Assembly (NCBI GenBank): GCA_000004695.1
Contig: CM000150.2
Location: 64,001 to 128,000 of the forward strand
Source: Dictyostelium discoideum
Lineage: Eukaryota
Direction: 5' to 3'
DNA length: 64,000 nucleotides
The first letter of the stretch is position 1. The number at the start of each line of letters is the position of its first letter. This document shows positions 9,862 to 63,115 of this stretch, in pieces. A program made the translations under genes and the position numbers. Under the pieces are notes generated by a model. It saw nothing but the letters and a program-made list of their open reading frames with translations. It did not search any database and was not told the DNA's origin.

Positions 9862-9931
9862 GGAATGAGACCTAGGAGTCGAACCCAGGACCGCCGGATT
9901 TGAATCCTATGCTCAACCAAGTGAGCTCATA
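9862..9931 (-). tRNA. tRNA-like 3' portion with a T-arm (CTGGG-TTCGACT-CCTAG), acceptor strand and encoded CCA. Its 5' part is non-canonical or disrupted at the DIRS junction. A second tRNA 5'-half-like sequence (GCTCGTGTAGTTCAGTTGGTAGAAT) lies immediately downstream at about 9826-9852.
   Basis: Folded by hand. No complete cloverleaf was obtained. Confidence 0.3.
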
Positions 9932-16339: not shown

Positions 16340-19300
16340 GTCCATCTGCTTCCAAATTTCAAGCCGATGCTAAACCCAATTCCGATTTCAATTCCAGAGG
16401 GTCCGAAATCAGATTGCATCACAAAGGAAGTACAAGACTTGTTATTAGACGATGCCATCGAACAAGTACTTCCAAACCGTTTTTCAAAGCGCGTTTTTTA
16501 CTCCAACGTGTTTACGGTTCCAAAACCTGGAACGAATCTACATCGTCCAGTTCTAGATTTAAAAAGGTTAAACACTTACATCAACAACCAATCATTCAAG
16601 ATGGAAGGAATCAAGAATCTACCATCAATGGTCAAACAAGGTTATTACATGGTAAAACTCGATATCAAGAAAGCTTACCTACACGTGTTAGTAGATCCAC
16701 AATACAGACTTATTCCGCTTCGTGTGGAAAGGTTCGCATTACCGTTGGAAAACAATGCCGTTCGGGTTATCTTTACAATGTTGTTAAGACCTGTACTTCG
16801 AATGTTGAGAGATATCAACGTATCCGTCATCGCTTACTTGGACGATCTATTAATCGTCGGTTCAACAAAAGAAGAATGTTTATCCAACCTCAAAAAGACA
16901 ATGGACTTACTTGTCAAACTAGGTTTCAAGTTAAATCTAGAAAAGAGTGTTCTCGAACCAACTCAATCAATTACGTTTCTCGGATTACAAATCGATTCGG
17001 TATCAATGAAGCTTCTTGTTCCCAAAGAAAAGAAGAAAAGTGTCATCAAGGAAATAAGAAACTTTTTAAAACTAGATTGTTGTTCCCCAAGAAAGCTTGC
17101 TGGTTTAAAAGGAAAGCTAATCGCACTGAAGGATGCAGTCATCCCATTCAGACTTTACACTCGTCGAACAAACAAGTTTTACTCTCAATGTCTGACTCTA
17201 GCCAATGGAGATTGGGATCAATCATTCCCCATTCCTCAAGAGGTCAAGTCAGAGATTTCACATTGGTTAACAGTTCTAAACCAATGGAATGGAAAAGAAA
17301 TCAGTCTGTTTCCAAGTTACGACTATGTTCTTACAACCGATGCATGGGAATCAGGTGCAGGTGCCACTCTCAAGAAAGGAAACAAGGTAATCAAAACTTG
17401 GTCATTCCAGTGGTCAACAAATCAATCAAACATGTCGTCAAATCGTCGAGAAATGCTCGCTCTGCTAATGGCCTATCAAGCGCTATGTCGGAAACTGAAC
17501 AACTGCAAGCTGAAGATTCAAACCGACAACACTACCACTCTCTCTTACATCAATCGCCAAGGTGGTCAAATACAAGATCTCTCAGTTCTATTCGAACAAC
17601 TTTGGAAACAATGCCTCAAGAAGAAAGTGAACTTGATTGGAGAGCATATTCCAGGATTCTTCAATGTAAAAGCCGACCACCTCAGTCGTCTTTCAGAGAT
17701 GAATCACAAATCATCGTCCAGAGTAATCAAGAGTTACAACTGGCAACTGAAGAAGGAAGTGTTCAATCGCATCCAACTTCAATTCGGTCAAATACAGATG
17801 GATCTATTCGCATCTCACCTCAACCATCAAACGAACAACTACTCAACAATCAAAATGAATGCACTCCACCTCGATTGGAGTCAATGGAAGCAATGTCTGG
17901 CCTTCCCACCACCCATTCTTTTGCCTTCTATCCTGGAGAAGATGAACTCATCCAGTTCGAAGAAGGTTTCTATAATACTGATCTTCCCAATCTGGAGATC
18001 AGCAACTTGGTATCCGATGATTCAAGCTCAAGTTCCTCGTCATCATCGTCACATGTTTCCTCAAGTATTGGGAACATTCCAAGAAGTATTGACCAAACAA
18101 TCAGTAGAGTCGATACCAATCCAGATTCAACAACGTTGGAAACTGGGGATTATTCAACTTTCCAATCTCATGTAATGTCATTCGCTCGTACAACAAATAC
18201 AAAAACAGCTGAGCTGTTAATGAAGTCTTGGGAACCTTCAACTCTCAAAGTATATAGCTCCAGTTATACAAGATTCCGCAATTTCTGTACTTTGAACTCT
18301 TTGAATCCAGCAAACATTACCTTAGTTGTTTTCATGGATTATCTTACAAATCTGTTCAAGCACAAACCTCCGTTAGCCTTCTCAACAATTAACGGTCATC
18401 GCTCTATGTTGAATCAGTTGTTACTCCTCAGGAATCAAACTGATATTGTTAATGATCCATTCATCACAAGAATTATGACTGGTATTCACAAGTTGCGTCC
18501 TTCATCTGCAAAGTATAAAGAGATATGGGATGCAAACCAAGTATTCAAGCACTTATCTACTATCAAAGTTATCCCTAAGTACACATACACTGCTCTATTA
18601 AACAAGACACTTGTACTCTGTAAAATGTTTGGTTTAGCAAGATCATCAGACTTGGTGAAGTGGTCGTTCAAAGGTCTCATTATTACTCCTGACTCAATCA
18701 AAGGTCCAGTTATCAATGCTAAAGAACAAAGAAGTGGTGTTGTTTCAATCTTAGAATTAACATCGTTAGATGATACAAACTCTCAAGTATGCCCTGTTCG
18801 CCACCTTGCAACATACCTTAGAGCCTCTAAAGGAAGAAGAAAGCCCCATTCGGGTGACTCTGTCTTTATTAAGAATGAGGGTGAACCGCTCCAAGTTAAT
18901 GATATTAACTCAATTGTATTATCAACGCTCTCAAAGTCAGGCATTGATATCGTCAAGTTCAAATCTCACTCTACCCGTTCCGCTATGGCTTCTCTGCTGT
19001 TGTCCAATAATGTTCCGTTCCACATTGTCAAGAAGATGGGTCGTTGGAAATCAAACGATACTGTAGATACCTTCTACGATAAAAGAATCATTGGTGAAAA
19101 ATCTGGTGGTTTCTTAAATACTGTCGTCCAAATTTCATAATATATATATATATATGATAATATAAATTAAAAATTTAATTTATTAAATTATATTTTATAT
19201 TAAATATATATATATATTAGTCCCATCCCACCCGCCCTTAGTCGGAATTCCATAAATCAAATTGTTTTAGTTTTTAGTGCCACTATTTATACGTTTTTAT

Positions 19301-22900: not shown

Positions 22901-25292
22901 CTTCCTTTGTGATGCAATCTGATTTCGGACCCTCTGGAATTGAAATCGGAATTGGGTTTAGCATCGGCTTGAAATTTGGAAGCAGATGGACTTTTAATCC
23001 ATTTACAACCTCTTGACAAAAGTTTAGAAGACCCAATTCTTTCCAAACTTGTTTGTGGTGGAACAGACGTCCACCTACTGGTAAGTTTACTTCTTGTTCT
23101 TCTGAAAACGGTTGTTGGTACCGTTGGCAGACTTTGTATTGTTGCTACCTGATGCAACAATACTTGGTGATCCATTGAAGTTGTTAGATCGGCCATTACT
23201 CCCACTACTGGATTTACCATTACTACTGTTTCCTGTAGTGTTATTACCACTTGAGTTAACTGATTTCTTGACATTGGACTTGGAATGATAATTCAATTTT
23301 AACAATGATTGTTTAGCTTCGTTGTTCTTTCTGATTGACTTGGCTAGCTTTCTTACACGTTCAGTTTCAGTTTCATCAAACATCTTTGGTGTATCCTTGA
23401 TCTTAATTCGTAAGAGTACTTCAGAACCATAAATTTCTTTAGCGATGTTGTTACGACGGACACGACTAAGCGATGCTTGAGCATTAACGGCTAAGACGAT
23501 TGCACTCTGAGTTAAATAACTAATAAGTTCTAAATCGACATTAGAGCTATCAGATGATAACATACTTGACATGAGAAGCAAAGGTTTTAAGCTATCGTTG
23601 ATTCGCTTTTCGACAATCAACAAGTCAGTATCATTGTTCTTGACGTTGGATGATACAGTAATACCTTCAGGTGTACCGAATGGAGCGACATTCACTTGGA
23701 AGTTAGATGGAAAGTTGAATACTTTATTCAATTCGGATATCTCATCTTTCTTGAGGATACATTCTTCTTCGACGAATAAACCTTGATTGTTAACCATATG
23801 TTTGTACTGACCAAGTAAAGTATCGGATAATTGATAATCGGTTGGAAAATCGACATTCACAGCAAAGAAAAAACCACCTTTAAATTCGCTTTAAATTAAA
23901 TTTAAATTTGCTTTAAAGTCCTGAATTAAAGCAATTTTAAAGGTAATTTTAAAGGTAATTTTTAAAGGTTACTTAAAATCACCTTAAAAAATTACATTAA
24001 AATTACCTTTTTAATGGCTTTAAAAGCGAGGTCCTGAGTTCGAATCCGTTATTTAACGGATAAATTTTTTAAAATTTTTTTTTTAATTTTTCAAAAATTA
24101 CCCAAAAGGGATTCGATCCCCCGACCCTCTATCAAAGGGTAGTCTCATCAACCATTACACCATTTGATTGCTTTGATGAAAAATTTAAAAATGATAGAAT
24201 ATTTTATCCCCATTTTTTTGTGCTAAAATTAGATCTTTTTTATTAAAAACCTTAAATTTATGTTTAAAGGAAATTTAAATTCACTTTAAATCTACTTTTA
24301 ATCTACTTTAAATCCTATTTAAAATTAATTTAAAATAAATTTTAAAGGTATTTTTAAATATCTTAAAAATTATCTTAAAAATTACCTTAAAAATCACCTT
24401 TAAAATCACCTTTAAAATCACCTTTAAAATTGCTTAAAAATTTATTTTAAAGCAAATTTTAAAGGCATTTTTAAATATCTTAAAAATTACCTTAAAAATT
24501 ACCTTAAAAATGAATTTTTTAAACGCGGCTTTAAATTCAATTTAAATCCAATTTAAATCAACTTTTCTTTAAATTTGCTTTAAAGGTGCATTTTTCTTTG
24601 CTGTGTTGTTACTTGATTCATCTTCACTTTGTTCATTCTCAGTGTCAGAGTCATCATGAGAAGGTTGGCTACGTGAATTGGTATTAGATGAGAACATAGG
24701 TTCTTTCATGAATCTAGTAAAGGCTAAGGAAAGGTTGTTGATTTGATCCTCCATTGACTTCATTCTTAAATCAAAGGATTCAGCACTATTAGAGGCAGAG
24801 GTATTGCTACTAGAGGCTTCATTATTATTAACAGTGGTAGACATATTTTATTGTTGATATCTAAAATTATAATATGAGAAAAATAATAATATTAAAAATT
24901 AATAAAGAGAAATAATTATTTGTATAAAATTTGTGTGTGTGTGTATCTTAAATATATATAGGAGGAATTCCCAAATAAAATAAATCGAATTGTTTTAGTT
25001 TTTAGTGCCACTATTTATACGTTTTTATTTTCTTAAAAATTTCGCAAAACTCAAAAAAATAAGAGTTTTCGACCCTTCACAACTTTGTGCATAGTGTCGG
25101 TTCGAAATTTTTCAGTTTTTCGACCTTACACAATGATCGCGTCATTGTGCCGGTTCGAAATTTTTACTTTTCTTTCGAAAATTTTTTATTCTTCGAATGT
25201 TCTAGAACATTCTAAAAAATTATCTTAAATATTTGGGAAATTCAAATAAATAAATGTTATTCATAATATATATATATATATGATAATATAAA
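19986..25292 (-). mobile_element. DIRS-1 copy C with frameshifts in ORF2 and ORF3. A 748-bp TIR element is inserted in ORF1.
   Basis: ORF3 pieces are 20173-21429 and 21607-23274, and ORF2 is 21708-23036. ORF1 is split into 23087-23857 and 24606-24844. The ITRs lie at 19986-20170 and 24960-25292. Confidence 0.8.
23858..24605 (+). mobile_element. MITE-like non-autonomous TIR element. Its TIRs are CACAGCAAAGAAAAAACCACCTTTAAA … TTTAAAGGTGCATTTTTCTTTGCTGTG. It has subterminal TTTAAAGG repeats and a tRNA-like core, and is flanked by a TT target duplication.
   Basis: It interrupts DIRS ORF1 exactly. The flanks read …CGACATT|…|TTGTTACT, against the intact CGACATTGTTACT at 14240. Other copies lie at 36130-36761 and 37612-38644. 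Confidence 0.75.
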
Positions 25293-34615: not shown

Positions 34616-34858
34616 CACCGTCCAATAGCTCGTTAATGGATATAATTCTTTCGTGGAACGTTTTAATGTGCGGGTGTTTCCGCGCCAATGACGGCTAGCT
34701 GGTGGTCGCTTTTTGTAATAACAAACAAGATTGAACAGAGATATCATCATTAGCGATCAACTTAAATAAATAGTCGACAGTCTGGGGAGTAGTGGGCATT
34801 TCTGGATCGATAAGGTAAGCGTGACGATTATTTTAAATGGTTTCGCCTAAGCCCTTAA

Positions 34859-35108
34859 CTACTGTAGCAAAGCACGTTTGAAATATAAATTAAATACCAC
34901 AACTAGAACGTTAGGGTTACGTATAGCATACTCAATTAACCAGCGAGTTTTCCCAGTTTGACGTGAGCCACTGAAGCCAATTGTAAACAACTCTCGTAAA
35001 TGACATGCCTTAGTACCGCCAAGATTATTAGCAGCGCTACGCATTATTAATCGCAATACTTTTCTCAAGTTCTTGAACTATCGCATCATAATCAATTGTA
35101 GACGTCAT
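34859..35108 (-). pseudogene. P-loop NTPase pseudogene with a Walker A motif GFSGSRQTGKT. The N-terminal ORF MTSTIDYDAIVQELEKSIAINNA stops and then frameshifts into the Walker A frame.
   Basis: The SRQxGKT signature resembles the Walker A motif of T4 gp17 large terminase (SRQLGKT). An SD sequence GAGGT lies 9 nt upstream of the ATG. The G5 paralog (61993-62139) is truncated by a TAA stop after the Walker A serine-arginine. Confidence 0.4.
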
Positions 35109-35120
35109 GATTTTTTTACC

Positions 35121-35288
35121 TCATTTATTTAAGTGGTTGTATGAACTCACAGGGTTATAGTCCTCATAAACAGGAAGTAGTAGACCAGGTGCATTAGGCA
35201 TTGTTATTAATACACGCTGCCCACGCACATAAGGTTGGTTGTTAACATATTTAAAATCAGTTGCCACATAGCCTTTTGGAATTTCCAT
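35121..35288 (-). CDS. Small ORF of 55 aa (MEIPKGYVATDFKYVNNQPYVRGQRVL…). Its stop codon overlaps the RBS of the next gene.
   Basis: An intact paralog lies in G5 (62151-62328) with an in-frame 3-codon indel. The gene layout is bacterial-style. Confidence 0.4.
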   Translation of the reverse strand: MEIPKGYVATDFKYVNNQPYVRGQRVLITMPNAPGLLLPVYEDYNPVSSYNHLNK

Positions 35289-35530
35289 GGTAAACTAATC
35301 CTCTTAATAGGGGACCGATGGCGGGTTGACCGTCAGACTTCTACAACACCCAACCACGTAATATCGGAGTGCTTCTGTCATTGTTATTTTATTTTTAGAT
35401 GCTACGCGGTTGATTGTGGTTTACTTACACCAAAGTGTAAGCGTCGGTTATTTGCTGGCATACTTTCAGCCACGTCCCAAGTCTCCAATTCACCGCCTTC
35501 CTGCTATTAATGGTGCCTAATGACGGACAT

Positions 35531-35568
35531 TCATCTCAAAATAAAACCAGGAGGGGTAAAACCCTCCT
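35531..35568 (-). terminator. Rho-independent terminator-like hairpin (AGGAGGG-GTAAAA-CCCTCCT) followed on the minus strand by TTTTATTTT.
   Basis: A 7-bp GC-rich stem plus a T-run, conserved in the G5 paralog at 62567-62601. Confidence 0.45.
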
Positions 35569-35889
35569 ATATACTAATCTTACGGACGTGGTGATATCGA
35601 ATACCACATTCTGTAATTTGGATCATGCTGGGTGTTATTTAATGTTTTGGCTATTGCTATAACCGACCGAGCTACTGTGTTTCCACAGAAATGACTCGAA
35701 CCATCGACCCACAGCGTGTATATAGTGAGCTGGTGGTTTAACCTCCCAAGGGCGGTGTTCGACTATTCGTCAAACGAAGACAAGCTTTTTAATTTAATTA
35801 AACTACCACACCATCTTCAATTTCGATTTTGGTAGAAGAGTTAGATTCAGTTAATCAATGTTGGCTTCGAAATCCAGAATCTCTTTTTC

Positions 35890-36078
35890 CTACTGCTTGA
35901 TTACTTTGCTGATCTCCAGCGGCTGATAACGTTCGATAACTGGATTAACGAACACAGCAATGGAAGCTTCATCGGCTTTCTTAGTACCGTTGAATGCTTC
36001 GGTGCGCGCGGTATTTTCACGCTGGTCAAAATTGGAGTTAGCGGTAACGTTGTGACGAGATATCGATTCGTAGTTCAC
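35890..36078 (-). CDS. Small ORF of 62 aa, probably GTG-initiated, of unknown function.
   Basis: Supplied ORF sitting in a compact gene array. Weak support. Confidence 0.25.
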   Translation of the reverse strand: MNYESISRHNVTANSNFDQRENTARTEAFNGTKKADEASIAVFVNPVIERYQPLEISKVIKQ

Positions 36079-36129
36079 TTTCTAAGCTTTGACAATATCG
36101 CGTTTCTCGCCTAATGCATTATGTGCATG

Positions 36130-36761
36130 TACAGCAAAGAAAAATCCACATTTAAAGCAAATTTAAAGCAAAGTTGATTTAAATTGGATTTAAATTGAAT
36201 TTAAAGCCGGGTTTAAAAAATTCATTTTCAAGGTAATTTTTAAGATAATTTTAAGATATTTAAAAATGCCTTTAAAATTTATTTTAAAATAATTTTAAAG
36301 AGGATTTAAAGTTGATTTAAAGTAGATTTAAAGTGAATTAAAATTTCCTTTAAATATAAATTTAAGGTTTTTAATAAAAAACATCTAATTTTAGATCAAA
36401 AAAATGGGGATAAAATATTCTATCATTTTTAAATTATCATCAAAGCAATCAAATGGTGTAATGGTTGATGAGACTACCCTTTGATTGATGAGACTACCCT
36501 TTTGGTAAATTTTCAAAAATTTCAAAAAAAAATTTTATAAAATTTATCCGTTAAATAACGGCTTCGAACTCCGGACCTCGCTTTTAAAGCCATTAAAAAG
36601 CTAATTCCTAAGGTAATTATAAAGGTAATTTATAAGGTGGTTTTAAAGTAACCTTAAAAATTACCTTTAAAATTACCTTAAAAATTGCTTTTGTACAGGA
36701 CTTTAAATTCGCTTTAAATTAAATTTAAATTTGCTTTAAAGGTGGTTTTTCTTTCACTGTG
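36130..36761 (-). mobile_element. MITE-like TIR element copy. It has the opposite orientation to 23858-24605 and is inserted between G2 and G3.
   Basis: Its termini are TACAGCAAAGAAAAATCC… and …GGTGGTTTTTCTTTCACTGTG. The interior is colinear with the 23858 copy and includes the tRNA-like core at about 36440-36500. Confidence 0.7.
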
Positions 36762-37026
36762 TAGTGTATTCTTTGCCAGCTACGGTAATAAGCGTACTAG
36801 CGTTGGACAATATCACTTTAGCAAGGATATCTTCACGCACACGAATGATATCTTGTAAACCATGGTAGTTTTCTTTGATCGCATCAGAAACCGCCCCAAC
36901 GGAATCATTGAAACCAGCTTCTTGGGCGAATTCATCAGTACCGCGAGTTAGTGAAATAAGCATCAGACCGTTGGACATGGATTTAACCGTGGCCAATGTA
37001 CGGGTAATTGAAATCTTAGTAGCCAT
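36754..37026 (-). CDS. Small ORF of 90 aa (MATKISITRTLATVKS…). Its last codons run into the inserted TIR element.
   Basis: TATAAAGG and AGGAAA lie upstream of the ATG. With the insertion removed, the frame continues three codons to a TAA stop. Confidence 0.35.
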   Translation of the reverse strand: MATKISITRTLATVKSMSNGLMLISLTRGTDEFAQEAGFNDSVGAVSDAIKENYHGLQDIIRVREDILAKVILSNASTLITVAGKEYTTQ

Positions 37027-37157
37027 TATATTTCCTTTTCCTTTATACGTTATAGACAGAGTGCCGAACCCTGTTTTAGAGAACGGTAGAGGCTTTCACT
37101 CTTAGGCTTTCATCGATCCCCGTTCGTGACCGTTTAGCGATTTCTTTAGATCTTAAT

Positions 37158-37247
37158 TGGTAGAGAATTAGAGATTCGAACTCTAGGAGCGGTTTCCCGC
37201 CCGACGGTTTTTAAGACCGTTACCTTGAACCACTCGGACAATTCTCC
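37158..37247 (-). tRNA. Type-II tRNA-like gene, probably tRNA-Leu (anticodon UAA), with a long variable arm and an encoded 3' CCA.
   Basis: Hand fold. The acceptor is GGAGAAT/ATTCTCT and the anticodon stem is ACGGT/ACCGT with loop CTTAAAA. The variable hairpin is GCGG-GAAA-CCGC. The T-arm is TAGAG-TTCGAAT-CTCTA, followed by A and CCA. The D-arm pairing is imperfect. Confidence 0.5.
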
Positions 37248-37406
37248 AATTGGGTGACACCCATTAGAATTTCACGTAGCTCTATAGCTATTACAGTCAA
37301 TACTAACACTTCACAAAAAGGCCTGGTTAACCCCTACTGATTGAACTTAGGTTGTCTTAGAGTTCCTACCAGGAAAACTGCAACTGATATCATTGTTTGG
37401 TGATTA

Positions 37407-37439
37407 CAAAAAAGACCAGTGTTATTGGCTGGTCTTTTT
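37407..37439. terminator. Bidirectional intrinsic-terminator-like hairpin AAAAAAGACCAG-TGTTATTGG-CTGGTCTTTTT. A mirrored copy lies in the palindrome arm at about 37905-37940.
   Basis: An 8-bp stem flanked by an A-run and a T-run. Confidence 0.45.
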
Positions 37440-37611
37440 GAGTTATACGATACCGTTCTCTTTACGATAACGGAATATTTTTGATCTATCGATATTAAGC
37501 ATTTCTGCAATTACTTAATCGCTATTACCTCACCAAGCAGTTCGATAATCATGGCAATATGTTCTGGGTTAAGTTGTGTCTTTTGGCTTTTACTTAATGC
37601 TGATCTACCAA

Positions 37612-37739
37612 CACAGCGAAGAAAAAACCACCTTTAAATTCGCTTTAAATTAAATTTAAATTTGCTTTAAAGTCCCGAATTAAAGCAATTTTAAAGGTAA
37701 TTTTAAAGCGAATTTAAAGGTGGTTTTTTCTTCGCTGTG
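37612..37739. mobile_element. Centre of the palindrome. It is MITE left end nt 1-98, then the reverse complement of nt 31-1, joined at a TTTAAAG microhomology.
   Basis: CACAGCGAAGAAAAAACCACCTTTAAATTCG lies at 37612 and its reverse complement ends at 37739. Confidence 0.7.
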
Positions 37740-38016
37740 TTGGTAGATCAGCATTAAGTAAAAGCCAAAAGACACAACTTAACCCAGAACATATTGCCAT
37801 GATTATCGAACTGCTTGGTGAGGTAATAGCGATTAAGTAATTGCAGAAATGCTTAATATCGATAGATCAAAAATATTCCGTTATCGTAAAGAGAACGGTA
37901 TCGTATAACTCAAAAAGACCAGCCAATAACACTGGTCTTTTTTGTAATCACCAAACAATGATATCAGTTGCAGTTTTCCTGGTAGGAACTCTAAGACAAC
38001 CTAAGTTCAATCAGTA

Positions 38017-38644
38017 AAACACTAAAAATTACCTTTAAAATTACCTTTAAAATTACCTTTTTAATCGCTTTAAAAGCGAGGTCCTGAGTTCGAAGCCGTT
38101 ATTTAACGGATAAATTTTTTAAAATTTTTTTTTTTAATTTTTCAAAAATTACCAAAAGGGATTCGATCCCCCGACCCTCTATCAAAGGGTAGTCTCATCA
38201 ACCATTACACCATTTGATTGCTTTGATGAAAATTTAAAAATGATAGAATATTTTATCCCCATTTTTTTGTTCTAAAATTAGATCTTTTTTATTAAAAACC
38301 TTAAATTTATGTTTAAAGGAAATTTAAATTCACTTTAAATCTACTTTAAATCTACTTTAAATCCTATTTAAAATTAATTTAAAATAAATTTTAAAGGTAT
38401 TTTTAAATATCATAAAAATTATCTTAAAAATTACCTTAAAAATCACCTTTAAAATCACCTTTAAAATCACCTTTATAAATTTATTTTAAAGCAAATTTTA
38501 AAGGCATTTTTAAATATCTTAAAAATTACCTTAAAAATTACCTTAAAAATGAATTTTTTAAACGCGGCTTTAAATTCAATTTAAATCCAATTTAAATCAA
38601 CTTTTCTTTAAATTTGCTTTAAAGGTGCATTTTTCTTTGCTGTG
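38017..38644 (+). mobile_element. Remainder (about nt 100 to the end) of the same MITE copy, with a right terminus …TTTCTTTGCTGTG at 38644.
   Basis: Colinear with 23955-24605. Once the inverted-duplication insert is removed, the whole MITE is flanked by an AA target duplication (…CTACCAA| and |AAGAGATCC). Confidence 0.65.
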
Positions 38645-38693
38645 AAGAGATCCAGTTCTACCATTCTGGCGATGCTTGCTTGCCGATCAGTCA

Positions 38694-38808
38694 TTAACGA
38701 ATCTTCTTCAGTAACTGAGTACGAAGAATTGGATTAGCATCTCGCTTGGCTTTATCGGCCGCTGCAGTGCGTTTTGTACAGTTACCAAAATCAAAAGATT
38801 TACATGGC
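38694..38808 (-). CDS. Small ORF of 38 aa (MPCKSFDFGNCTKRTAAADKAKRDANPILRTQLLKKIR). It has a perfect RBS (GGAGG 7 nt upstream), and its stop overlaps the next start (TAATGA).
   Basis: Read directly. The downstream overlapping gene MTDRQASIARMVELDL… is interrupted by the MITE. Confidence 0.4.
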
Positions 38809-38851
38809 ATGACATCCCTCCATTGACTTAAAAGAAAAATAAGGGGATAAC

Positions 38852-39052
38852 ATGTGTTCTGGTCAAGCCATACCCTTAATGAGGGTGTTAATCTTCGTCA
38901 TAATAATTTTGATCTTTTGGAGTACTTGCATGCAGAGAGGTTATGGGGACCATCCCTACACATTATATCCGGTACTGTGTAAAACTTTACATATCAATAG
39001 ATCAAAAATAAGAGGATGTAGTACATCCCCTCTTTCAATTAAGGCAACATGA
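38852..39052 (+). CDS. Small hydrophobic ORF of 66 aa with an RBS (AAGGGG 5 nt upstream of the ATG).
   Basis: Supplied ORF. A hydrophobic stretch (LMRVLIFVIIILIFW) suggests a membrane peptide. Confidence 0.3.
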   Translation: MCSGQAIPLMRVLIFVIIILIFWSTCMQRGYGDHPYTLYPVLCKTLHINRSKIRGCSTSPLSIKAT

Positions 39053-39330
39053 CCCTAGTCAAGTAGCGCATTGTGTCACGTAATAGGGATACACGCCCGC
39101 GATTAAGATCAACAATACCGTAGTTCAAATGAATAGAATCGTTATATATACCTTCTGCGTTAAGCCTGAAGTTCAAACGCGAACGGAGCGTAGTATGAAC
39201 CTGACCTTCACTTCTGAAAATGTGTACTCGTTATCTAACGCCACATCAAAGGCAGGCCAACCTGTTAATGCTGTTGATCTTATCCCAATTACGTGAAACA
39301 ATGCGCTACTTGGCTAAGGTCATGGTGGCC
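39048..39330. repeat. Pair of imperfect inverted repeats of about 60-75 bp (39048-39125 and 39255-39330). They flank a core of about 130-190 bp that carries a 33-codon ORF with a GGAG RBS.
   Basis: The left repeat reads CATGACCCTAGTCAAGTAGCGCATTGTGTCACGTAATAGGGATA…AGATCAACAATACC. The right repeat is its reverse complement with a 14-bp indel. Confidence 0.5.
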
Positions 39331-39385
39331 AATACAACTCCACCTGTAAACCTTTCACCAACCACTTGTCATTGACTAATAACTA

Positions 39386-52896: not shown

Positions 52897-53330
52897 GTGT
52901 AAAAGTCACTCACACTAATCTTCAATCCATTGTCACATTTGTTCAATCTTTAATCAAACAGTCCAATTTTTAAAGTAATGTTTTTTTAAAATGAAGGATA
53001 GAAAGAGTGAAAGACTAATATCATAAAAGTAAACATACATAAAAGAGATAATTAAAAGTAAGGGCGTTATGAAAAACTAAACCGAAAATCAGAATTTTTA
53101 TTATTATTTAAATTTTAATTTAATTTTATTTAATTTAATTTAATTTTTTATTTTTCAACTGAAAAAATAAAAAATTAAAAAATAAAAATTAAAATTAAAT
53201 GAAATATTTTTACATGGAGATGCGCGAATTTGTTACGTTGTTGAGCTCATACTAACTTTAAATTAATTTAGTTTTGAGTCTCCAACACCTTCCCCTTCCT
53301 TCTTTAGGCTAGCTTTGGCTTAGAGGTGGA

Positions 53331-53612
53331 CTATAATCTCTTCGGTGTAACTTTTCTTCCTGATCTTGTTGTTTTAATTTGTAAACTAAGATCAAGTTCA
53401 TCATCATCACTTGAAGTATTTTGATTTCTTGATTTTCTTTTCTTTGATTGGTTCATTTGATTTGAGTTGGAGTTTTGTTGTCTTGGAGGAGTTGGTTGCA
53501 ATGTTTGGGACCTTTGAACTTCTTGGGAGAGTGGAGGTGACACAATTGGCTCAACGGCTTCTGTAGTTACATTCTCTCTTTCTCTTCTAGAGTTCAATTG
53601 TTTCTTCTGCAC
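53331..53612 (-). CDS. Basic Ser/Gln-rich ORF immediately downstream of integrase, possibly an integrase C-terminal extension.
   Basis: Supplied ORF with no recognisable motif. Confidence 0.25.
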   Translation of the reverse strand: MQKKQLNSRRERENVTTEAVEPIVSPPLSQEVQRSQTLQPTPPRQQNSNSNQMNQSKKRKSRNQNTSSDDDELDLSLQIKTTRSGRKVTPKRL

Positions 53613-53613
53613 G

Positions 53614-55266
53614 TTATTCCAATACTCTCTGACTAACTAGTTTTACGATTTGATCCTTGTTGTACACATTGTGTTTCTTTGGATAACCTACTAAATCGAG
53701 TGTTACATTATTACCATGAACGGCAGTGATTATGAATGGTCCACAATTCTTGGATTCAAGTTTGTGAGAGATTAGATCTTTTGAAAGGTTAGTTTGGAAG
53801 AATTTTCTTTTAACCATCACCTTTTCTCCGACTACGAAGATAACATCACCACGACCTCGGTTGTAGTACTTTTGAGCATTGATTTGAGCATCTAGTATAT
53901 TATCACGGACAATCTTTTTGATGTTGCTCATTGGTATACGAGTCTTTGTTAATGAATTGAAATGATTAACTGGAGTTGGTGGATTGAATCCATAAACGAT
54001 TTGGAATGGTGACATCTTTGTAGACTTGCTCATTGATGAGTTCATTGCAAATTCAATAAGTGGAATGATATCTGAACAATTCTCCACATACTCTGTTGAG
54101 GCTTTAGTTAATATTCTAATAATTTCTCTATTCATTCTTTCAGTTTGACCATCAGCTTGTGCTCTGTGTGCCACAGTCATCTTGAGTTTAGAATCCATCG
54201 TCTTTGCCCATCTCTCACATATTTCTGAAAGGAATCTTGGATCTCTATCGGAGACGATTGTTCTTGGATAACCATGGAGTCTGAACACATGATTCAACAA
54301 TAATTGAGCGGTATGTTGGGCATCTATTGTCTTATGACATGGAACTATATTAACCATTTTAGATAATCTACAAACAATGACACAAACTTGATCGACTTCA
54401 ACTGTAAATCCGTTTAGTGCATACATTGTTTTTGGTAGCGATAAGAAATCGATTGATATATCTCTCCAAACTTCAAAGGGAATTTCTAAACTTTGGAGTA
54501 TACCATTATCTTTACGGTTAATTTTCAATTGACATGTTGCACAAGACTTTATGTACCTCTTGATAATAGAAAACATTTCTTTAAAATAGTAATCTTGTCT
54601 TATATTATTGTATGTTATATCTAAAGCGTAATGACCACTATATTTGGTATCGTGATATTCCCTAATGACGGTATGAATAGTTTCTTTATCTATGATGATT
54701 AATTTCTTGAACCCATCTTCACTAAGGTAACATAAATCATTAATTTCTTCAATGCATAAATTTGGATTCTTTTTCATCTCTAATAGCCATTGAGAATTGA
54801 TTTGTTCTTCCTTAATTTTATTTAAAAACGATTCATCCCATTGGAAATTATCATATTTACGAGATAAGAAATCAGCTATACAATTCTTTTTACCACTTAT
54901 ATGTCTTAATTCATAATCAAATTCTTTAATATATTTCATATAATTATCTTGTCTCTTTGTGAACGGTTTATCGTTTGACTTATTGATAATATATTTAAGA
55001 TTTTGGTGATCAGTGTAGATTGAAACCTTTTTACCAATTAATAAATGTTGAAACTTCTTTAGAGAATCAATGATTGAAAGGAACTCTCTATCACCTATGC
55101 TGTACCTCTTTTGAGTATCAGTAAGTTTTCTACTGTGAAACCAAATGACTTTGAATTTATCACCTTGAATTTGATATAATACACCTGATAATGCTTTATC
55201 ATTAACATCACAATACAAGTGAAAACTACCATTGTTTAGATTATTATTATCTGAATGGATTGGCAT
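53614..55266 (-). CDS. Skipper RNase H + integrase with an HHCC zinc finger and a DDE core.
   Basis: RNase H-like YTDHQNL, then H…H…C..C (HDTKYSGHYALD…CATC), and a catalytic core. Confidence 0.7.
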   Translation of the reverse strand: MPIHSDNNNLNNGSFHLYCDVNDKALSGVLYQIQGDKFKVIWFHSRKLTDTQKRYSIGDREFLSIIDSLKKFQHLLIGKKVSIYTDHQNLKYIINKSNDKPFTKRQDNYMKYIKEFDYELRHISGKKNCIADFLSRKYDNFQWDESFLNKIKEEQINSQWLLEMKKNPNLCIEEINDLCYLSEDGFKKLIIIDKETIHTVIREYHDTKYSGHYALDITYNNIRQDYYFKEMFSIIKRYIKSCATCQLKINRKDNGILQSLEIPFEVWRDISIDFLSLPKTMYALNGFTVEVDQVCVIVCRLSKMVNIVPCHKTIDAQHTAQLLLNHVFRLHGYPRTIVSDRDPRFLSEICERWAKTMDSKLKMTVAHRAQADGQTERMNREIIRILTKASTEYVENCSDIIPLIEFAMNSSMSKSTKMSPFQIVYGFNPPTPVNHFNSLTKTRIPMSNIKKIVRDNILDAQINAQKYYNRGRGDVIFVVGEKVMVKRKFFQTNLSKDLISHKLESKNCGPFIITAVHGNNVTLDLVGYPKKHNVYNKDQIVKLVSQRVLE

Positions 55267-55617
55267 GTCTGTTGATGCTTTAACCTTTTCGATATCTATT
55301 GGTATGCAGTTATCTTGTTCAATTGGAATATCGACAATATTTTCACCTTCAAACTCTTTCTTTAGATTATTGAATTCTTTGAGTGATTCATCAGAAAGTG
55401 TTTTCTTGTTTTTTCCTATTGATTCTTTGGAAAGGTGATATGTTTTTTCAGCGTAATTTTCAATGTGTCTCCTGAAGAATCCAAAAAGACCTAATGCAGC
55501 TTCAGCTTCTTTGGCGTTTCTTGGTTCAGGTAACTCAGAGATAGCTCTAACCTTTGCAGCTCTTGGAGATATACCATCTTTATGAATGTGAAAACCAAGG
55601 AAATCTACTTCAGTCTT

Positions 55618-56637
55618 TTACATTTCACTCTTTTCTCTTGAAATGAATAATAGGTACATTCTACAATATAGAAGCATTCTAATGATTTCAATGAAATGTA
55701 CCATGTAGTCGAGTTTTGAATGAACCAAAAGATCATCAAAGTATTGTAATAAACTTTTGATTTTTCCAAATATTTCGACCATCAATCTAGCGAATGTGGA
55801 TGGAGAGTTGACTAAACCTTGTGGCATTCTAGTATATTCAAATTTACCAATATGTGTAATGAAAATGGTGTACTTTGCGTGTTCTGGATTAATTAACACT
55901 TGTAAATAACCCATAATCATGTCAAACTTTGAGAAAAGCTTTGAATATTTACATTGATTTAAAAGACTATCAACCGGAGTGAATGGATGATCGTCTCTAA
56001 CAGTGACTTTATTTATTTGACGATAGTCGTGGACTACACGCCATGAATCTCTCTTCTTTAATAACATGATTGGGGATGAGTAATTTGATTCTGATCTTTT
56101 GATAATACCTAAATCTATAAATTTGAGAACCATTTCTTCGACATGTCTCTTATGATCATCTGTTGAGTAATAGATTTGTTTCTTTGTTGGTTCAACATCT
56201 TGATCTTTCTTTATTATGATATTATGTATGATATTACCTCTTCTGGAATTGTTAATCTGATCTGGAACATCAGGAAGTTTATCTACTATAACATCTTCGA
56301 ATGAATTATTAATGAAATCACGTACTGCTTGTATCTCTTCTTCTTCTGGATTATTTTTAACCAGTATATCACAAAGTTGTGATGGGATGCTTTCAATAAA
56401 CTTTGTAACTTGTTCTTTGATATCTTCATCATCATCTAGTAGATTATGTGACTGTGACTGATTATCATTGGATACGGTAACATGTTTTCTTGGAGCTTTT
56501 ACATTACAATGTAATTGATTCGACTGTTGATAATTAATTTTGTATGTACTGTTATTCAACTTGATTATTTTATCTTTTTGGTTAATGATAGAGTCCTTAA
56601 GGATATCATTACCAAAAAGTACATCAATGATATCCAA
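55618..56637 (-). CDS. Skipper reverse transcriptase.
   Basis: The YFDDLLV motif. Stop codons interrupt the pol frames, so this copy may be slightly defective. Confidence 0.7.
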   Translation of the reverse strand: MDIIDVLFGNDILKDSIINQKDKIIKLNNSTYKINYQQSNQLHCNVKAPRKHVTVSNDNQSQSHNLLDDDEDIKEQVTKFIESIPSQLCDILVKNNPEEEEIQAVRDFINNSFEDVIVDKLPDVPDQINNSRRGNIIHNIIIKKDQDVEPTKKQIYYSTDDHKRHVEEMVLKFIDLGIIKRSESNYSSPIMLLKKRDSWRVVHDYRQINKVTVRDDHPFTPVDSLLNQCKYSKLFSKFDMIMGYLQVLINPEHAKYTIFITHIGKFEYTRMPQGLVNSPSTFARLMVEIFGKIKSLLQYFDDLLVHSKLDYMVHFIEIIRMLLYCRMYLLFISREKSEM

Positions 56638-57342
56638 TTATATATTAAAGAAGTTATGAATTTCATTGTTAACTTGTATATTGATTTGTTCAACAAACTC
56701 TTCTTTGACGTCAAGTAGCGGTAAGTTAATCTTGGCTTTGGTTTTGTGAACGTGGTTCTTCATATCTTTTGAAATCAACCTCTTATTGATTAAACTAACA
56801 TTACTTCCAGTATCGAGAATTAATTTGAATTGTTTTTTTTTGGAATGAGAGTTAATTATAATCTTGGGTTTATCCATGTTTTCTCTGTTTGGAACGATTA
56901 AACATTTTAGAGTCGGAATGAGAGCAGTATCACTTGTACCAGTACTATGTAATAATGAGATGATTGGTTTGTTTGTTTCTTTATCGAATTTAATTGTGTA
57001 AAGCAATTCATCTTCTTCATCGTTAATTAATTCTTTACCAGAATTTAATATCTTTGGACGATTGAATATGTTTACAGTATAGTTTTTATCTTGAACATTT
57101 GTTAACTCTGTTGGAGTATTAAATTCAATCTTCTGTGGTGTATACTTCATCTCTGATTCCACAGCTTTTGGAATTGGAACGTTTGTATCAGGAACTAGTT
57201 TTATACCATATGAGTCTTTGACGTATTCTTTAAGTTTGTTGATGTTTTTATGAACATCATGTTGCTGGCTTTGTTGATGTAACTGTTTAACAATGTTTTG
57301 ATTATAAAAAGAGTTAAGAGTATAAAGTGAATCTTTGTTCAC
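56638..57342 (-). CDS. Skipper aspartic protease, a separate ORF.
   Basis: LILDTGSNVSLI active-site motif. Confidence 0.7.
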   Translation of the reverse strand: MNKDSLYTLNSFYNQNIVKQLHQQSQQHDVHKNINKLKEYVKDSYGIKLVPDTNVPIPKAVESEMKYTPQKIEFNTPTELTNVQDKNYTVNIFNRPKILNSGKELINDEEDELLYTIKFDKETNKPIISLLHSTGTSDTALIPTLKCLIVPNRENMDKPKIIINSHSKKKQFKLILDTGSNVSLINKRLISKDMKNHVHKTKAKINLPLLDVKEEFVEQINIQVNNEIHNFFNI

Positions 57343-57432
57343 TGGGTAATCATTATCCTCAAGGTGATGATATTGTGAAATTTTATAATTTTTATTTAAA
57401 ATCTTTGACCTGGACTCATCACCTTCATCGAG

Positions 57433-57852
57433 TCATTGTTGCTTTTTGGCTAATGGACCTGGATTGGCTTTGGCATCGACCGGATCAATTCTACATGTAG
57501 ATGTGGAGTGATTTGATTTACCACAATTGAGACAGTAGCCTTTGCTTTGACGGTAAACGATGAAACTGCTTCTTATCTTTTTGAGGTCTACCTTAGAGTC
57601 TTTTCTTATTTCGGGTAATATTGCAGCTCTAATCTTATCAGCTTGAGCATCAAAGGAATTCCTGTTATGAGAGTTATGATTTGGAGTAGCATGATTCTTT
57701 TTTAATGGAAACTTCTCATCAGTATTCGATGCAGAATCGGAAGGTCTTCTTCTCGAGAACTTATCAGCATTGTTAAGAACCAACTCGGTGATGGCTTCAC
57801 GACACTCGGTGATATCGGTTTGTAACCAGTCTGGTACGACCATCTTTAACAA
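57433..57852 (-). CDS. Skipper Gag C-terminal / nucleocapsid CCHC zinc knuckle.
   Basis: CLNCGKSNHSTSTC motif. Confidence 0.65.
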   Translation of the reverse strand: MLKMVVPDWLQTDITECREAITELVLNNADKFSRRRPSDSASNTDEKFPLKKNHATPNHNSHNRNSFDAQADKIRAAILPEIRKDSKVDLKKIRSSFIVYRQSKGYCLNCGKSNHSTSTCRIDPVDAKANPGPLAKKQQ

Positions 57853-57879
57853 AGCAAGGATATTATTATCTAAAATTGA

Positions 57880-58567
57880 TCATAGATACTCTAATTGAAC
57901 TTCAGCAGTACCATGGATGAGATACACCGGATTAATTACATTGTGGTAACTCATAATGGCTTCGATGTTATTTATAACATCTTGGGCTGAGTAGCAGTTA
58001 CGATGGTTAATAGCTTCGACTACTTTAGTATTGGCAGCTTCGTAGTCAGTTTTGAATGGAACCAAAGTCTTGGATCTAAAGTTACGGTGGATTAGCTTCT
58101 TCAATGTTTCACCTTCAATTTTATCGTTGTTCTTAACTGATTCATTGTGGGTAGGTTGAAGCAATTGAAATAATTCATTTGATGCAGCACCATTGTCCAC
58201 AATGGTCTTCAAGGTTGGTTCAACACCATTCTGGGAGCAGTGGATGGTAAAAAGATTCATGAAGATGACAGCAGTGGCAGCATTTTTTAAAGCATCAATG
58301 GTTTTAGCTTCAATGGAATTGGTCTTTGATTTCTTTGGCACTTTCTCTCTGACTTCGACGTCGGATACATCAGTGCTTTCAGTTGAAATAAATTTCATCA
58401 TCAACTTCAGTGGGACGAAGAGTCTTTTTTGATTTTACTTGAACAGTAATAGCATCATGGGAGGCGGTTGTCACTTCAGCGGCACGTTTGGCGGTGGAAG
58501 ACACTTTGGCTTTACGGATGGCTTTCTTTGAAGGAGTAGTAGTTGATGACATGACTTTCACCAACAA
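57880..58567 (-). CDS. Skipper Gag.
   Basis: The supplied ORFs 58379-58567 and 57880-58404 are adjacent, with a possible frameshift between them. Confidence 0.6.
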
Positions 58568-59735
58568 TTATATATAAAATTTATTAAATATAATTTAATT
58601 TTATAATTTAATTTTATAATTTAATTTACATAATTTAATTATATAATTTAATTTAATTTATTTAATTTAATTTAATTTAATTTTTAATTAAATAATTAAA
58701 TATAAGTATTAATATATGTTAACTGTTATTCCACTAATATATTTTTATTGTGGTGTCTTTATATTATTTAATTGATAATAAATATTATCTTAAATTATTT
58801 TAATTATAACAATGCATCAATATAACTGTTATTCCACTAATAATTTATATTGTGGTGTATTTATTTAACTGTTATTCCACTAATAATTTATATTGTGGTG
58901 TCTTTATTTAACTGTTATTCCACTAATAATTTATAGTGGTGTCTTTGTATTTGAGCATTATTATTAAATTAATTGATACAATCTTGTTTTATATTACTTT
59001 ATAAAAGATGCATGTTTACAATGTGAGTAGGAAGTGTCGTTGTACCGCCTAAGCAGTACAGCGTTAATCTTGCAAACAGAAGGGCCATTGTAATGCATTT
59101 TTATTTTGTTTTAAATACTACTGTTATTCCTCTAATCTGAAGAGTCGACTTCTTCATCATGAGGTGTCATTGTATACGAAATATAAGGATTGTATCTAAT
59201 TATTTGTTTTAATGTATTTGTTTTATGTTAAAATTAGAAAAAAAAAGTGTAAAAGTCACTCACACTAATCTTCAATCCATTGTCACATTTGTTTAATCTT
59301 TAATCAAACAGTCCAATCTTTAAAGTAATGTTTTTTTAAAATGAAGGATAGAAAGAGTGAAAGACTAATATCATAAAAGTAAACATACATAAAACAGATA
59401 ATTAAAAGTAAGGGCGTTATGAAAATCAGAATTTTTATTATTATTTAAATTTTAATTTAATTTTATTTAATTTAATTTTTTATTTTTCAACTGAAAAAAT
59501 AAAAAATTAAAAAATAAAAATTAAAATTAAATGAAATATTTTTACATGGAGATGCGAATTTGTTACGTTGTTGAGCTCATACAAACTTTAAATTAATTTA
59601 GTTTTGAGTCTCTAACATCTAGAACATTCTAAAAAATTATCTTAAATATTTGGGAAATTCAAATAAATTAATGTTATTCATAATATATATATATATTTAA
59701 TATATAATATAATTTAATAAATTAAATTTTTAATT

Positions 59736-61924: not shown

Positions 61925-62150
61925 ATAAATTAAATTTACTAGAACGTTAGGGTTACGGATAGCATACTCAAATAACCAGCGAGTTTTCCCAGTTTAACGT
62001 GAGCCACTCAAGCCAATTGTAAACAACTCTCGTAACTGACATGCCTTAGTACCGCCAAGGTTATTAGCAGCGCTACGCTCATTATTAATCGCAATACTTT
62101 TCTCAATCGCATCATAATCGATGGTTGTCGTAGACGTCATGATTTTTTAC

Positions 62151-62328
62151 CTCATTTATTTAGGTGGTTGTATGAACCCACATGGGTATAGTCCTCATAA
62201 ACAGGAGCTACTTTTGCTGGTAGACCAGGTGCATTAAGCATTGTTTTTAATACACGCTGACCACGCACATAAGGTTGGTTGCTAACATATTTTAAATCAG
62301 TTGCCACATAGCCTTTTGGAATTTCCAT
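62151..62328 (-). CDS. Small ORF of 58 aa, paralog of 35121-35288 (MEIPKGYVATDLKYVSNQPYVRGQRVL…).
   Basis: It is intact in both diverged copies, with an in-frame indel, and the same RBS and overlap arrangement is retained. Confidence 0.4.
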
Positions 62329-62941
62329 GGTAAACTAATCCTCTAAATAGGTGACCAATGGCGGGTTTACTTCTACAACACTCAACCACGTAATGTTGGA
62401 AGTGCTTCGGTATTGTTCTTTTATTTTGAGATGCCATGCGGTTGATCGTGGTTTACTTACCCCAAAGTGTAAGTGTCGGTTATTTGCTGGCATACTTTCA
62501 GCCACTTCCCAAGTCTCCAATTCACCGCCGTCCTGCTATTAAGGGTGCCCAATGACGGACATCCATCTCAAAATAAAACTAGGAGGGGGTAAAACCCTCC
62601 TATATACTGATCTTACGGACGTGGTGATATCGAATACCACATTCTGTAATTTGGATCACACTGGGTGTTATTTACAATACCTAACGGACTGTATTTATCG
62701 TAGAAGGATCCCACTGTTGCGTTGCAATACCGTTAACAATCAACACTAAGCTGATTGTCCATACACTATTCTTCGTCGATGTATGATAAGGTAGGACAAT
62801 CCCATCAGCCGGTAGCTTATCCAATACAGCATCAACAATCAGCGCTTTGGACGGTGCTAAAATAAGGAACATCCGTTGTTAGCTTTGTTTTCCATATTTG
62901 GTTCACTGTCTTACAAACAAACCACCGGCATCTTTACCCTG

Positions 62942-62987
62942 CGTGTTACTAATAGGAATGGGGAAGGCATTCCTATTAGTAACACGC
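62942..62987. repeat. Strong hairpin or palindrome with 19-bp arms CGTGTTACTAATAGGAATG and a GGGAAGG loop.
   Basis: Read directly. Confidence 0.6.
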
Positions 62988-63115
62988 ATAACTGACGTTT
63001 TCACTAGGGGCTAATACTAATTAATATTACCATGCCAGCTACGGTGTCAATCCAGTGTGTCAAATTAGTAACAGCTTTGGAGCCATCCAGATATGACGGA
63101 ACGCCTGGGCCTGAA

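Follow-up and report, generated by a model that had tools for sequence, protein, structure and literature searches.

How DNA laid out like that of a phage or bacterium came to lie among the retrotransposons of an amoeba is the question raised by 64,000 nucleotides of Dictyostelium discoideum contig CM000150.2 (positions 64,001 to 128,000; hereinafter the window, in whose own numbering coordinates are given unless another locus is named). An initial annotation, made from the sequence alone, had singled out 34616-39385 as a phage-like gene island with related pieces elsewhere in the window. Our analysis indicates that these segments are very probably functionless fossils left by the double-stranded DNA of a large tailed bacteriophage of the jumbo type, duplicated and decaying in a centromere. 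Judged from sequence comparison, its distant relatives would be phages of Enterobacterales of roughly 270-290 kb (Erwinia Agricanvirus, Salmonella SA002, and the Serratia Moabite group).

Self-comparison of the window picked out five segments of low-copy DNA with a guanine-plus-cytosine (GC) fraction of 0.40-0.42: G1 (8977-9925), G2 (34616-36129; GC 0.41), G3 (36762-37611), G4 (38645-39385), and G5 (61925-63115). In a comparison made inside the window, they are unrelated to its DIRS-1, Skipper-like, and terminal-inverted-repeat (TIR) elements. Every recognisable gene of G1-G5 lies on the minus strand. The initial annotation had placed the genes on one strand, as we find, and left the strand itself unstated.

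The segments are surrounded by numerous DIRS-1 copies (gene calls at the matching locus: RVT_1 and Phage_integrase), one Ty3/gypsy-type element consistent with Skipper (53288-59247), and AT-rich TIR elements. One open reading frame (ORF) of the island, 36754-37026 on the minus strand, is identical to the D. discoideum AX4 protein DDB_G0267286 (Q55H13) of chromosome 1, which is labelled a hypothetical protein. Because this AX4 chromosome 1 gene is present and DIRS-1 clusters are confined to centromeres (PMC2665215), we infer that the window belongs to the chromosome 1 centromere, in line with the pericentromeric-type repeat region suggested earlier. The GC contrast reported at that time holds against the AT-rich parts of the window (0.17-0.25), not against DIRS-1 (0.36 overall and 0.39 in its ORF), over which the segments are only slightly raised. 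GC content was therefore rejected as a marker that sets the island apart from adjoining DIRS-1.

Phage gene families and bacterial-type tRNA genes

Searches of the translated segments and their paralogs against phage proteins matched three families, PHROG 1491 (E = 6.2e-16), PHROG 2586 (E about 1e-8; 2.7e-8), and PHROG 14913 (E = 4.4e-18). The PHROG 1491 gene is present in two halves on the minus strand. Specifically, the N-terminal half (36763-37026) covers profile positions 1-93 and the C-terminal half (35798-36129) covers positions 117-178. Erwinia phage AH06 gp217 (217 amino acids) aligns on both sides of the TIR element at 36130-36761, with residues 1-95 on 37026-36763 and residues 99-197 on 36135-35854. 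Therefore, the two halves are one phage gene split by a Dictyostelium TIR transposon, and G2 and G3 are contiguous without it, as the initial annotation had proposed. A premature TAG (35890-35892), common to the window and to a paralogous locus elsewhere in the genome (L004), stands ahead of a C-terminal tail that is still recognisable; in L004 the tail downstream of the TAG, EKEILDFEANIDYALTE..., is still readable.

The PHROG 1491 protein was matched in 146 phage records by tblastn, the best match being 47% identical and found in Erwinia phages of the Ea35-70 group (271-275 kb). A HMMER search of 1.84 billion representative proteins of genomic and metagenomic origin returned the Dictyostelium copies and only ten others (165-219 amino acids, 34-47% identity), the sole named cluster among the ten consisting of Klebsiella and Salmonella phage proteins. 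A pattern scan of IMG/VR with a PHROG 1491 peptide found no relative, and the metagenomic contig that encodes the best non-Dictyostelium homolog (L005) ends at the gene and gives no synteny.

The PHROG 2586 gene is a P-loop nucleoside triphosphatase (NTPase) pseudogene (34862-35108, minus strand) with the Walker A motif SGSRQTGKT. It resembles AH06 gp219, residues 15-86 of which align with 35074-34862. By tblastn against phage records, its relatives occur exclusively in 270-295 kb phages of Salmonella, Erwinia, Serratia, and Pectobacterium; the matches comprise 14 jumbo-phage records at 38-49% identity, SA002 and Erwinia phages included. AH06 has gp217 and gp219 arranged as they are in the island, in order as well as orientation, at a distance of 1.6 kb, and of AH06 genes 199-236 only these two match the window. 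The three phage gene families, the bacterial-type tRNAs described below, and the AH06 gene order together bear out the horizontally acquired phage or bacterial origin suggested initially.

The resemblance of the P-loop gene to a T4-type large terminase, also suggested initially, was rejected: the AH06 homolog has just 172 amino acids and no terminase Pfam match. A terminase combines ATPase and nuclease domains in a protein of ~500-600 amino acids. The P-loop protein gave only weak matches to AAA_14 and AAA_33 in Pfam and to polynucleotide kinase in the PDB.

Upstream of the P-loop pseudogene lies ORF55 (MEIPKGY..., 35121-35288, minus strand; 55 amino acids in the ORF list), for which PHROG and Pfam contain no homolog. 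Exact-protein look-ups of the ORFs at 35121-35288 and 36754-37026 and of P0014 returned no record. At the DNA level, a distant-mode blastn search covering 50,697 phage records gave only short matches for G2 and G3 (69-89% identity) and nothing for G1, G4, the G5 tail, or positions 17860-19081 of a second paralogous locus, L003. The G3 matches are tRNA genes; those of G2 are short stretches that follow the gp217 homolog and precede the P-loop homolog. Two such stretches, 35443-35542 and 35655-35797, look non-coding and match the DNA of Salmonella phage SA002 and Erwinia phage Desertfox at 69-76% identity, while the neighbouring proteins are less than 50% identical to the phage ones. One of them carries a tRNA T-arm-like motif, GGGTCGATGGTTCGAGTC (minus strand), with no Rfam match. 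The two stretches may be a conserved phage RNA or regulatory element.

The third family is a HNH homing endonuclease. G3 contains a frameshifted C-terminal remnant (37444-37611, minus strand; ...GRSALSKSQKTQLNPEH...RKENGIV-stop), 118 bp of which are 91.5% identical to G1, and G1 contains a frameshifted pseudogene (9640 to about 9222, minus strand). The better-kept paralog P0002, encoded at L003 elsewhere in the genome, matches PF13392 (HNH_3) and phrog_14913 with the E value given above. The window copies are frameshifted or truncated and are 92% (G1) and about 90% (G3) identical to P0002. In L003, the G3-type C-terminal part of the gene is contiguous with the N-terminal part. In G1, the HNH pseudogene runs at its end into an ankyrin-repeat fragment (9223-8978, minus strand; Ank_4, E = 2e-6); other than that, Pfam found nothing in the phage-like ORFs of the window.

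A class II tRNA gene of bacterial type occupies 37158-37247 on the minus strand (called by ARAGORN and Rfam at 37161-37247, 50.7 bits), with CCA directly after the called gene. ARAGORN labels it Leu(UAA); this copy has the anticodon UAA and discriminator A. Its DNA matches phage tRNA-Ser genes by blastn. The L004 counterpart (9780-9869) is tRNA-Ser(UGA) with discriminator G, and the L003 copy (about 10657-10740) also has UGA. Since UGA is kept in both L004 and L003, the ancestor was tRNA-Ser(UGA) and the window copy has changed. The window and L004 genes differ at exactly two positions, both G to A (anticodon UGA to UAA, and the discriminator). The serine-to-leucine direction of the two changes is probably chance, both being G to A.

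A second tRNA gene with encoded CCA lies in G1 (9861-9925, minus strand), truncated at its 5' end where a DIRS-1 terminus cuts 7 nt into the acceptor stem. Rfam matched it only partially (E = 0.9), and its identity comes from the intact paralog at L003 9718-9793, a tRNA-Trp(CCA). A further tRNA-like remnant lies beside it (9858-9812, minus strand). The two CCA-encoding tRNA genes noted initially are thus one called gene and one truncated gene identified through its paralog. Eukaryotic nuclear tRNA genes are not known to encode CCA, and they have a T-run terminator close downstream. Both window tRNAs fail as ordinary Dictyostelium nuclear tRNA genes, with CCA encoded right after the discriminator. 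By eye, no run of four T residues, the RNA polymerase III terminator, was seen in the ~120 nt downstream of 37158. Rfam matches to the microRNA families MIR2670, MIR5185, and mir-548 (36600-36694 and 37587-37764) scored below the gathering thresholds, correspond to TIR and foldback hairpins, and were rejected.

Signals of prokaryotic expression accompany the genes. Shine-Dalgarno-like motifs, noted in the initial annotation and read here from the sequence, stand 6-11 nt ahead of minus-strand start codons; they include TGAGGT 9 nt before the P-loop ATG, GGAGGG before a 38-amino-acid ORF in G4 (38810-38694), and AAGAGGA before ORF55. Of the three rho-independent terminators proposed there, all on the minus strand, two were scored, namely GGAGGG-loop-CCCTCC followed by a T-run at 35548-35569, which is kept in G5, and a hairpin in G4 (39032-39010). 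The third, a terminator-like hairpin at about 37404-37438 after the HNH remnant, was seen by eye only, its 9-nt loop keeping it out of the scanner output; it has T-runs on both sides. As a count, terminator-like sites are not significantly above chance (six found, 3.3 +/- 1.8 expected), and promoter-like sites show no enrichment (12 found, 15.5 expected).

The ancestral arrangement can be reconstructed with the help of L003, in which a G1-type part (HNH and tRNA-Trp) is joined to a G3-type part. L003 thereby reveals the ancestral order and marks the G3/G4 junction as secondary, the product of a rearrangement that lies 7 nt away from the TIR site. The reconstructed order, on a sense strand that is the minus strand of the window, is tRNA-Trp(CCA), HNH gene, terminator, tRNA-Ser(UGA), PHROG 1491 gene, terminator, ORF55, and small P-loop NTPase gene.

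Insertion, duplication and decay in the nucleus

The island is reproduced in a second assembly, GCA_054883475.1, in which one locus (L002) is colinear with window positions 25879-47310 at 99.86-99.97% identity. This locus spans the DIRS-1/G2 junction, both TIR/G junctions, and the G4/DIRS junction; the only difference is that a foldback at 37722-38014 is missing. The second assembly also matches the AX4 protein DDB_G0294314, with 100% identity wherever the two align. It probably corresponds to PRJNA1300491 (Nanopore and Illumina; PMC12745789).

Two TIR insertions interrupt the phage-like DNA. The first (36130-36761) is a non-autonomous DNA element with CACAG... ends, TA at both flanks, and a GC fraction of 0.23, and lies inside the PHROG 1491 gene. 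Related copies occur at 38017-38644 and 23858-24394, and the same insertion is present in L004. The second (37612-38644) has a 2-bp target duplication, AA, and its site is empty in L004, where the uninterrupted sequence CTACCAAGAGATCC has G4 abutting G3. The contiguity of G3 and G4 without the element, as first proposed, is seen directly in this empty site. The 37612-38644 interval is a TIR insertion as described, and it also includes the 293-bp foldback (37722-38014) absent from L002. The foldback, centred near 37675, consists of an inverted 277-bp copy of 37335-37611 (100% identity) and a duplicated TIR end. At this place L002 has a simple TIR element, and the foldback is either an AX4-specific rearrangement or a reference artefact.

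The TIR family as a whole, perhaps of DDT or thug type, comprises non-autonomous, TTTAAAG-rich elements of ~630-745 bp with CACAGCGAAGAAAAA... ends and 2-bp target duplications (AA and TA). Members at 36132-36761, at 37612-38644, up to 8976, and at about 9250-9515 of L003 record repeated insertion into phage-derived DNA. Inside the elements is a degenerate stretch that resembles a tRNA, e.g. at 38150-38230.

DIRS-1 also cuts the segments. The left edge of G2 is an exact right-hand DIRS-1 terminus (...GATAATATAAA, with the segment starting directly after it). The exact termini reported initially are found at or within 1-2 nt of the element ends at 34615, about 9926, and about 63116; at 61924 the last ~6 nt of the DIRS-1 end are missing. 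The left ends at G1 (9926-9955) and G5 (63116-63140) have a variant terminus in common, ...AAATTTTTAAAT..., in place of the usual ...AAATTTTTAATT. The DIRS-1 junctions at G1 and G5 may be related by duplication. At the right-hand edge of the island (39374-39385), the phage-like DNA meets internal DIRS-1 sequence, with DIRS-1 homology starting from 39374 and not at a terminus; this junction is common to L004.

Paralogs of the segments, which the initial annotation had suggested looking for elsewhere, were found in D. discoideum at L003 and L004. L004 carries G4, G3, and G2 at 95-97% identity (95-96% for the G2 part), and its positions 8312-9434 are colinear with window positions 39778-38645 at 96.6%. 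The window and L004 have in common the first TIR insertion and 393 bp of internal DIRS-1 beyond 39385. Therefore, the unit was copied by segmental duplication after those events. L004 also has an extra ~360-bp GC-rich piece (10262-10620), which separates the TIR element from the N-terminal half of the PHROG 1491 gene. This piece opens with a short inverted duplication (GGCAAAGAATAC TGTG ... GTGTATTCTTTGCC) and contains an intact-looking 90-amino-acid ORF on the opposite strand, with no PHROG match.

Within the window, G5 (61925-63115, minus strand) has DIRS-1 ends on both sides and consists of a G2 paralog (61925-62674) and a tail unrelated to G2 (62675-63115). The paralogous part holds a P-loop pseudogene (62140-61937), an ORF55 copy (62334-62155), and the terminator. 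The paralogy reported initially stands for G2 and G5, which are 88.4% identical over 776 aligned columns and 92.9% identical when gaps are left out; for G1 and G3, the match spans only 118 bp at 91.5%. Substitution divergence ranges from about 2% (window and L004) to about 6-7% (against G5 and L003).

The copies have decayed in different ways. In the P-loop gene, each copy has a lesion of its own: in G2 a 2-bp deletion that causes a frameshift near the N-terminus relative to G5, and in G5 a CAA to TAA change within the Walker A motif. ORF55 differs between G2 and G5 by nine nonsynonymous and two synonymous substitutions and a 9-bp indel, and the ratio of nonsynonymous to synonymous rates (dN/dS) of about 1.3 shows no purifying selection. 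Among substitutions of the window and L004 lineages polarised with an outgroup paralog, 17 of 22 are GC to AT, four are AT to GC, and one is other. This bias is roughly six-fold per site, as expected of neutral DNA in an AT-rich genome. An insensitive word-index protein search found only Dictyostelium models, those of AX4 and ACTFIT, a result that carries no information where pseudogenes are concerned. The stops, the frameshifts, a dN/dS of about 1, the AT-biased substitutions, and the paralogs L003 and L004 agree with the initial description of the island as old, amplified, and now decaying.

The remaining parts of the segments are less informative. G1 (8977-9925, minus strand), cut by a DIRS-1 end, contains the HNH pseudogene, the ankyrin fragment, and the tRNA remnants already described. 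G4 (38645-39385, minus strand) resembles the other segments in composition and orientation; it contains the 38-amino-acid ORF, the terminator hairpin, and a 47-bp inverted repeat (39045-39091 and 39281-39327, 89% identity, spacer ~190 bp) that is also present in L004. G4 gave no match in blastn against phage records, PHROG, or Pfam, and it would be of phage origin by its position and features. The G5 tail likewise gave no match in the phage blastn, PHROG, or Pfam. A single-copy stretch of L003 (17860-19081, GC 0.44) lies beside a TIR end on a different contig; one of its ORF fragments has profile matches to PHROGs 4365 and 29914 (E about 4e-14), and Rfam and the phage blastn returned nothing. 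It is possibly, by these profile matches, a further phage-derived piece. In the AT-rich repeated DNA of the window, ORFs at 35-2041 (668 amino acids) and 4992-7109 (705 amino acids) have no Pfam match and presumably encode DDT-type DNA transposon proteins.

Donor, route of entry and alternative explanations

A sequence of four events would account for these observations. Phage DNA, probably released as the amoeba digested infected prey bacteria, would have been joined by illegitimate recombination into centromeric DIRS-1. A candidate for the original integration scar is the 39374-39385 junction with internal DIRS-1, which is common to the two paralogs. The DNA would never have been expressed as genes, and it gained the stops, frameshifts, and AT-biased substitutions seen in the copies. 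TIR elements and DIRS-1 then inserted, as their junctions record. Finally, segmental duplication within and between centromeric regions would have carried the segments together with flanking transposon pieces, as is seen in the window and in L004. What is left is a small paralog family, about 2-7% apart by substitution, without present function.

The donor, as far as sequence comparison goes, would be a phage related to Agricanvirus-like jumbo phages, with no claim of membership in that genus. Erwinia Agricanvirus (Ea35-70 and AH06), Salmonella vB_SalM_SA002, and Serratia Moabite and 2050HW have homologs of PHROG 1491 and PHROG 2586, as does the island. These jumbo phages of Enterobacterales also have the gene pair about 1.6 kb apart and short stretches of 69-76% DNA similarity; protein identity is just 39-49%. 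AH06 differs from the island in that no tRNA or HNH gene is annotated upstream of gp217.

Several points weigh against the jumbo-phage assignment. The label depends on best matches, in phages of 271-294 kb, at 39-49% identity and on two-gene synteny, and none of the collections searched contained a close donor. Major capsid protein, terminase, multisubunit RNA polymerase, and PhuZ/chimallin, the hallmark genes of jumbo phages, were looked for in the G fragments and none was found. Phage or bacterial affinity is demonstrable for three gene families and two tRNAs only; no homolog of that kind was found for G4, the G5 tail (62675-63115), ORF55, or the G1 ankyrin fragment. Both the entry route and the original junction are inferred. 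The second assembly probably comes from the same laboratory lineage, and it excludes an assembly artefact without showing presence in wild populations.

Given these points, the donor might instead have been a bacterial chromosome or plasmid, with the DNA coming from a prophage or phage-like island of a prey or symbiont bacterium and not from a virulent jumbo phage. tRNAs, HNH endonucleases, and small P-loop proteins occur in prophages too, the fragments hold no jumbo-phage hallmark gene, and the best identities are below 50%. However, the named relatives of both informative proteins are all phage, those of the P-loop protein being exclusively from 270-295 kb jumbo phages; the gene order is that of AH06; and none of the ten distant non-Dictyostelium HMMER matches among 1.84 billion proteins is named as bacterial. 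We therefore consider a bacterial donor unlikely.

If the segments are phage fossils, some part of them could still have been put to use. A specific version holds that the phage tRNA-Ser(UGA) was turned into a leucine-type tRNA by UGA to UAA and G73 to A73, and that it is transcribed and used by Dictyostelium, whose AT-rich genes make heavy use of UUA codons. If true, this would be a bacteriophage tRNA domesticated by a eukaryote; we regard it as very unlikely, as we do a related reading in which the centromere captures DNA of prey and of their phages again and again and the fossils would represent several independent uptakes. More broadly, 37158-37247 could be a working tRNA-Leu(UAA), or the repeats could serve centromere function. 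The tRNA still scores 50.7 bits, both of its differences from L004 go towards leucine identity, and the 2009 centromere study describes one centromeric tRNA gene that "seems to be functional" and non-transposon repeats that are exclusive to centromeres (PMC2665215). On the other hand, two changes in 90 nt are about the neutral expectation for this lineage, and both belong to G to A, the dominant class of decay. CCA is encoded, no T-run was seen in the ~120 nt downstream, and all the protein genes are broken. The context is also heterochromatic, as we take DIRS-1 clusters to be. Domestication of this kind has very little chance of being correct.

A eukaryotic mobile element or a large DNA virus that infects amoebae, related only remotely to phages, is an explanation to which we give hardly any credence. 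Giant viruses commonly carry tRNAs and HNH endonucleases and have ankyrin repeats as well, and G1 contains an ankyrin-repeat fragment. The 2009 authors proposed "rare DNA transposable elements" for centromeric repeats (PMC2665215). However, the segments show bacterial features (Shine-Dalgarno motifs, intrinsic terminators, encoded CCA), homologs are confined to phage families and genomes, and the copies move with DIRS-1 and TIR flanks, as in segmental duplication and not as in transposition of a unit that has its own termini.

Contamination or a chimeric assembly, i.e., phage DNA of a library host or food bacterium mis-joined to Dictyostelium repeats, would fit the frequency with which prokaryotic-looking DNA in eukaryotic assemblies is contaminant and the suspicious foldback at 37722-38014 in the AX4 sequence, and is virtually eliminated, as the initial annotation had argued from the pattern, by a separately produced assembly with the same junctions at 99.9% identity, by TIR elements with target duplications inside phage ORFs and an empty site kept in a paralog, and by at least five diverged paralogous fragments with common and private inactivating mutations and AT-biased substitutions.

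Known systems and the biology of the centromere

The phage fossils have counterparts among known systems. In T4- and T5-type tRNA clusters, CCA-encoding tRNAs are interleaved with a HNH gene, small ORFs, and intrinsic terminators, as in the island; the phage blastn found no sequence relationship, and the organisation alone is alike. Nuclear mitochondrial and plastid DNA insertions (NUMTs and NUPTs) and Wolbachia-to-insect or -nematode transfers, including prophage WO genes, likewise involve illegitimate integration, silence, and neutral decay towards host composition. NUMT and Wolbachia insertions are also broken by host transposons and sometimes duplicated. The island differs from them in that its donor looks like a virulent jumbo phage of prey-type bacteria and not an endosymbiont or organelle, in that it sits in a retrotransposon-built centromere, and in that it includes bacterial-type tRNAs and a homing endonuclease. 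The island adds one more case to a phenomenon already known, that of foreign DNA lodged without function in eukaryotic nuclei, here with an unusual donor and resting place.

The 2009 study of Dictyostelium centromeres described non-transposon repeats with "no obvious coding capacity" and a GC content like that of their surroundings, exclusive to centromeres, and considered them possibly rare DNA transposons or products of recombination; it also placed two tRNA genes in the centromere of chromosome 1 (PMC2665215). The G segments are very probably those repeats, matched by description only (PMC2665215). Both are low-copy, centromere-exclusive, not transposons, and similar to their surroundings in GC. 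They differ in that no coding capacity was reported for the repeats, whereas the G segments have phage protein homology, bacterial tRNAs, and expression signals. A full-text literature search found no paper on a phage origin of Dictyostelium centromeric sequences, and pieces of the island are annotated as hypothetical proteins in AX4 and in the newer assembly.

For the centromeric non-transposon repeats of D. discoideum, the finding supplies a concrete origin that had probably gone unrecognised. In AX4, the models DDB_G0267286 and DDB_G0294314, together with at least one of the centromeric tRNAs annotated there, need new labels as phage-derived pseudogenes. Multi-gene phage DNA fixed in the nucleus of a bacterivorous protist, of which the island is a clear case, is rarely caught; such raw, unselected material is a prediction of the "you are what you eat" model of gene transfer. 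The paralogs provide a neutral-evolution clock for centromere turnover, with AT-biased decay and an order of TIR and DIRS-1 insertions. A heterochromatic centromere built of retrotransposons can be a tolerant sink, in which foreign DNA survives and is amplified.

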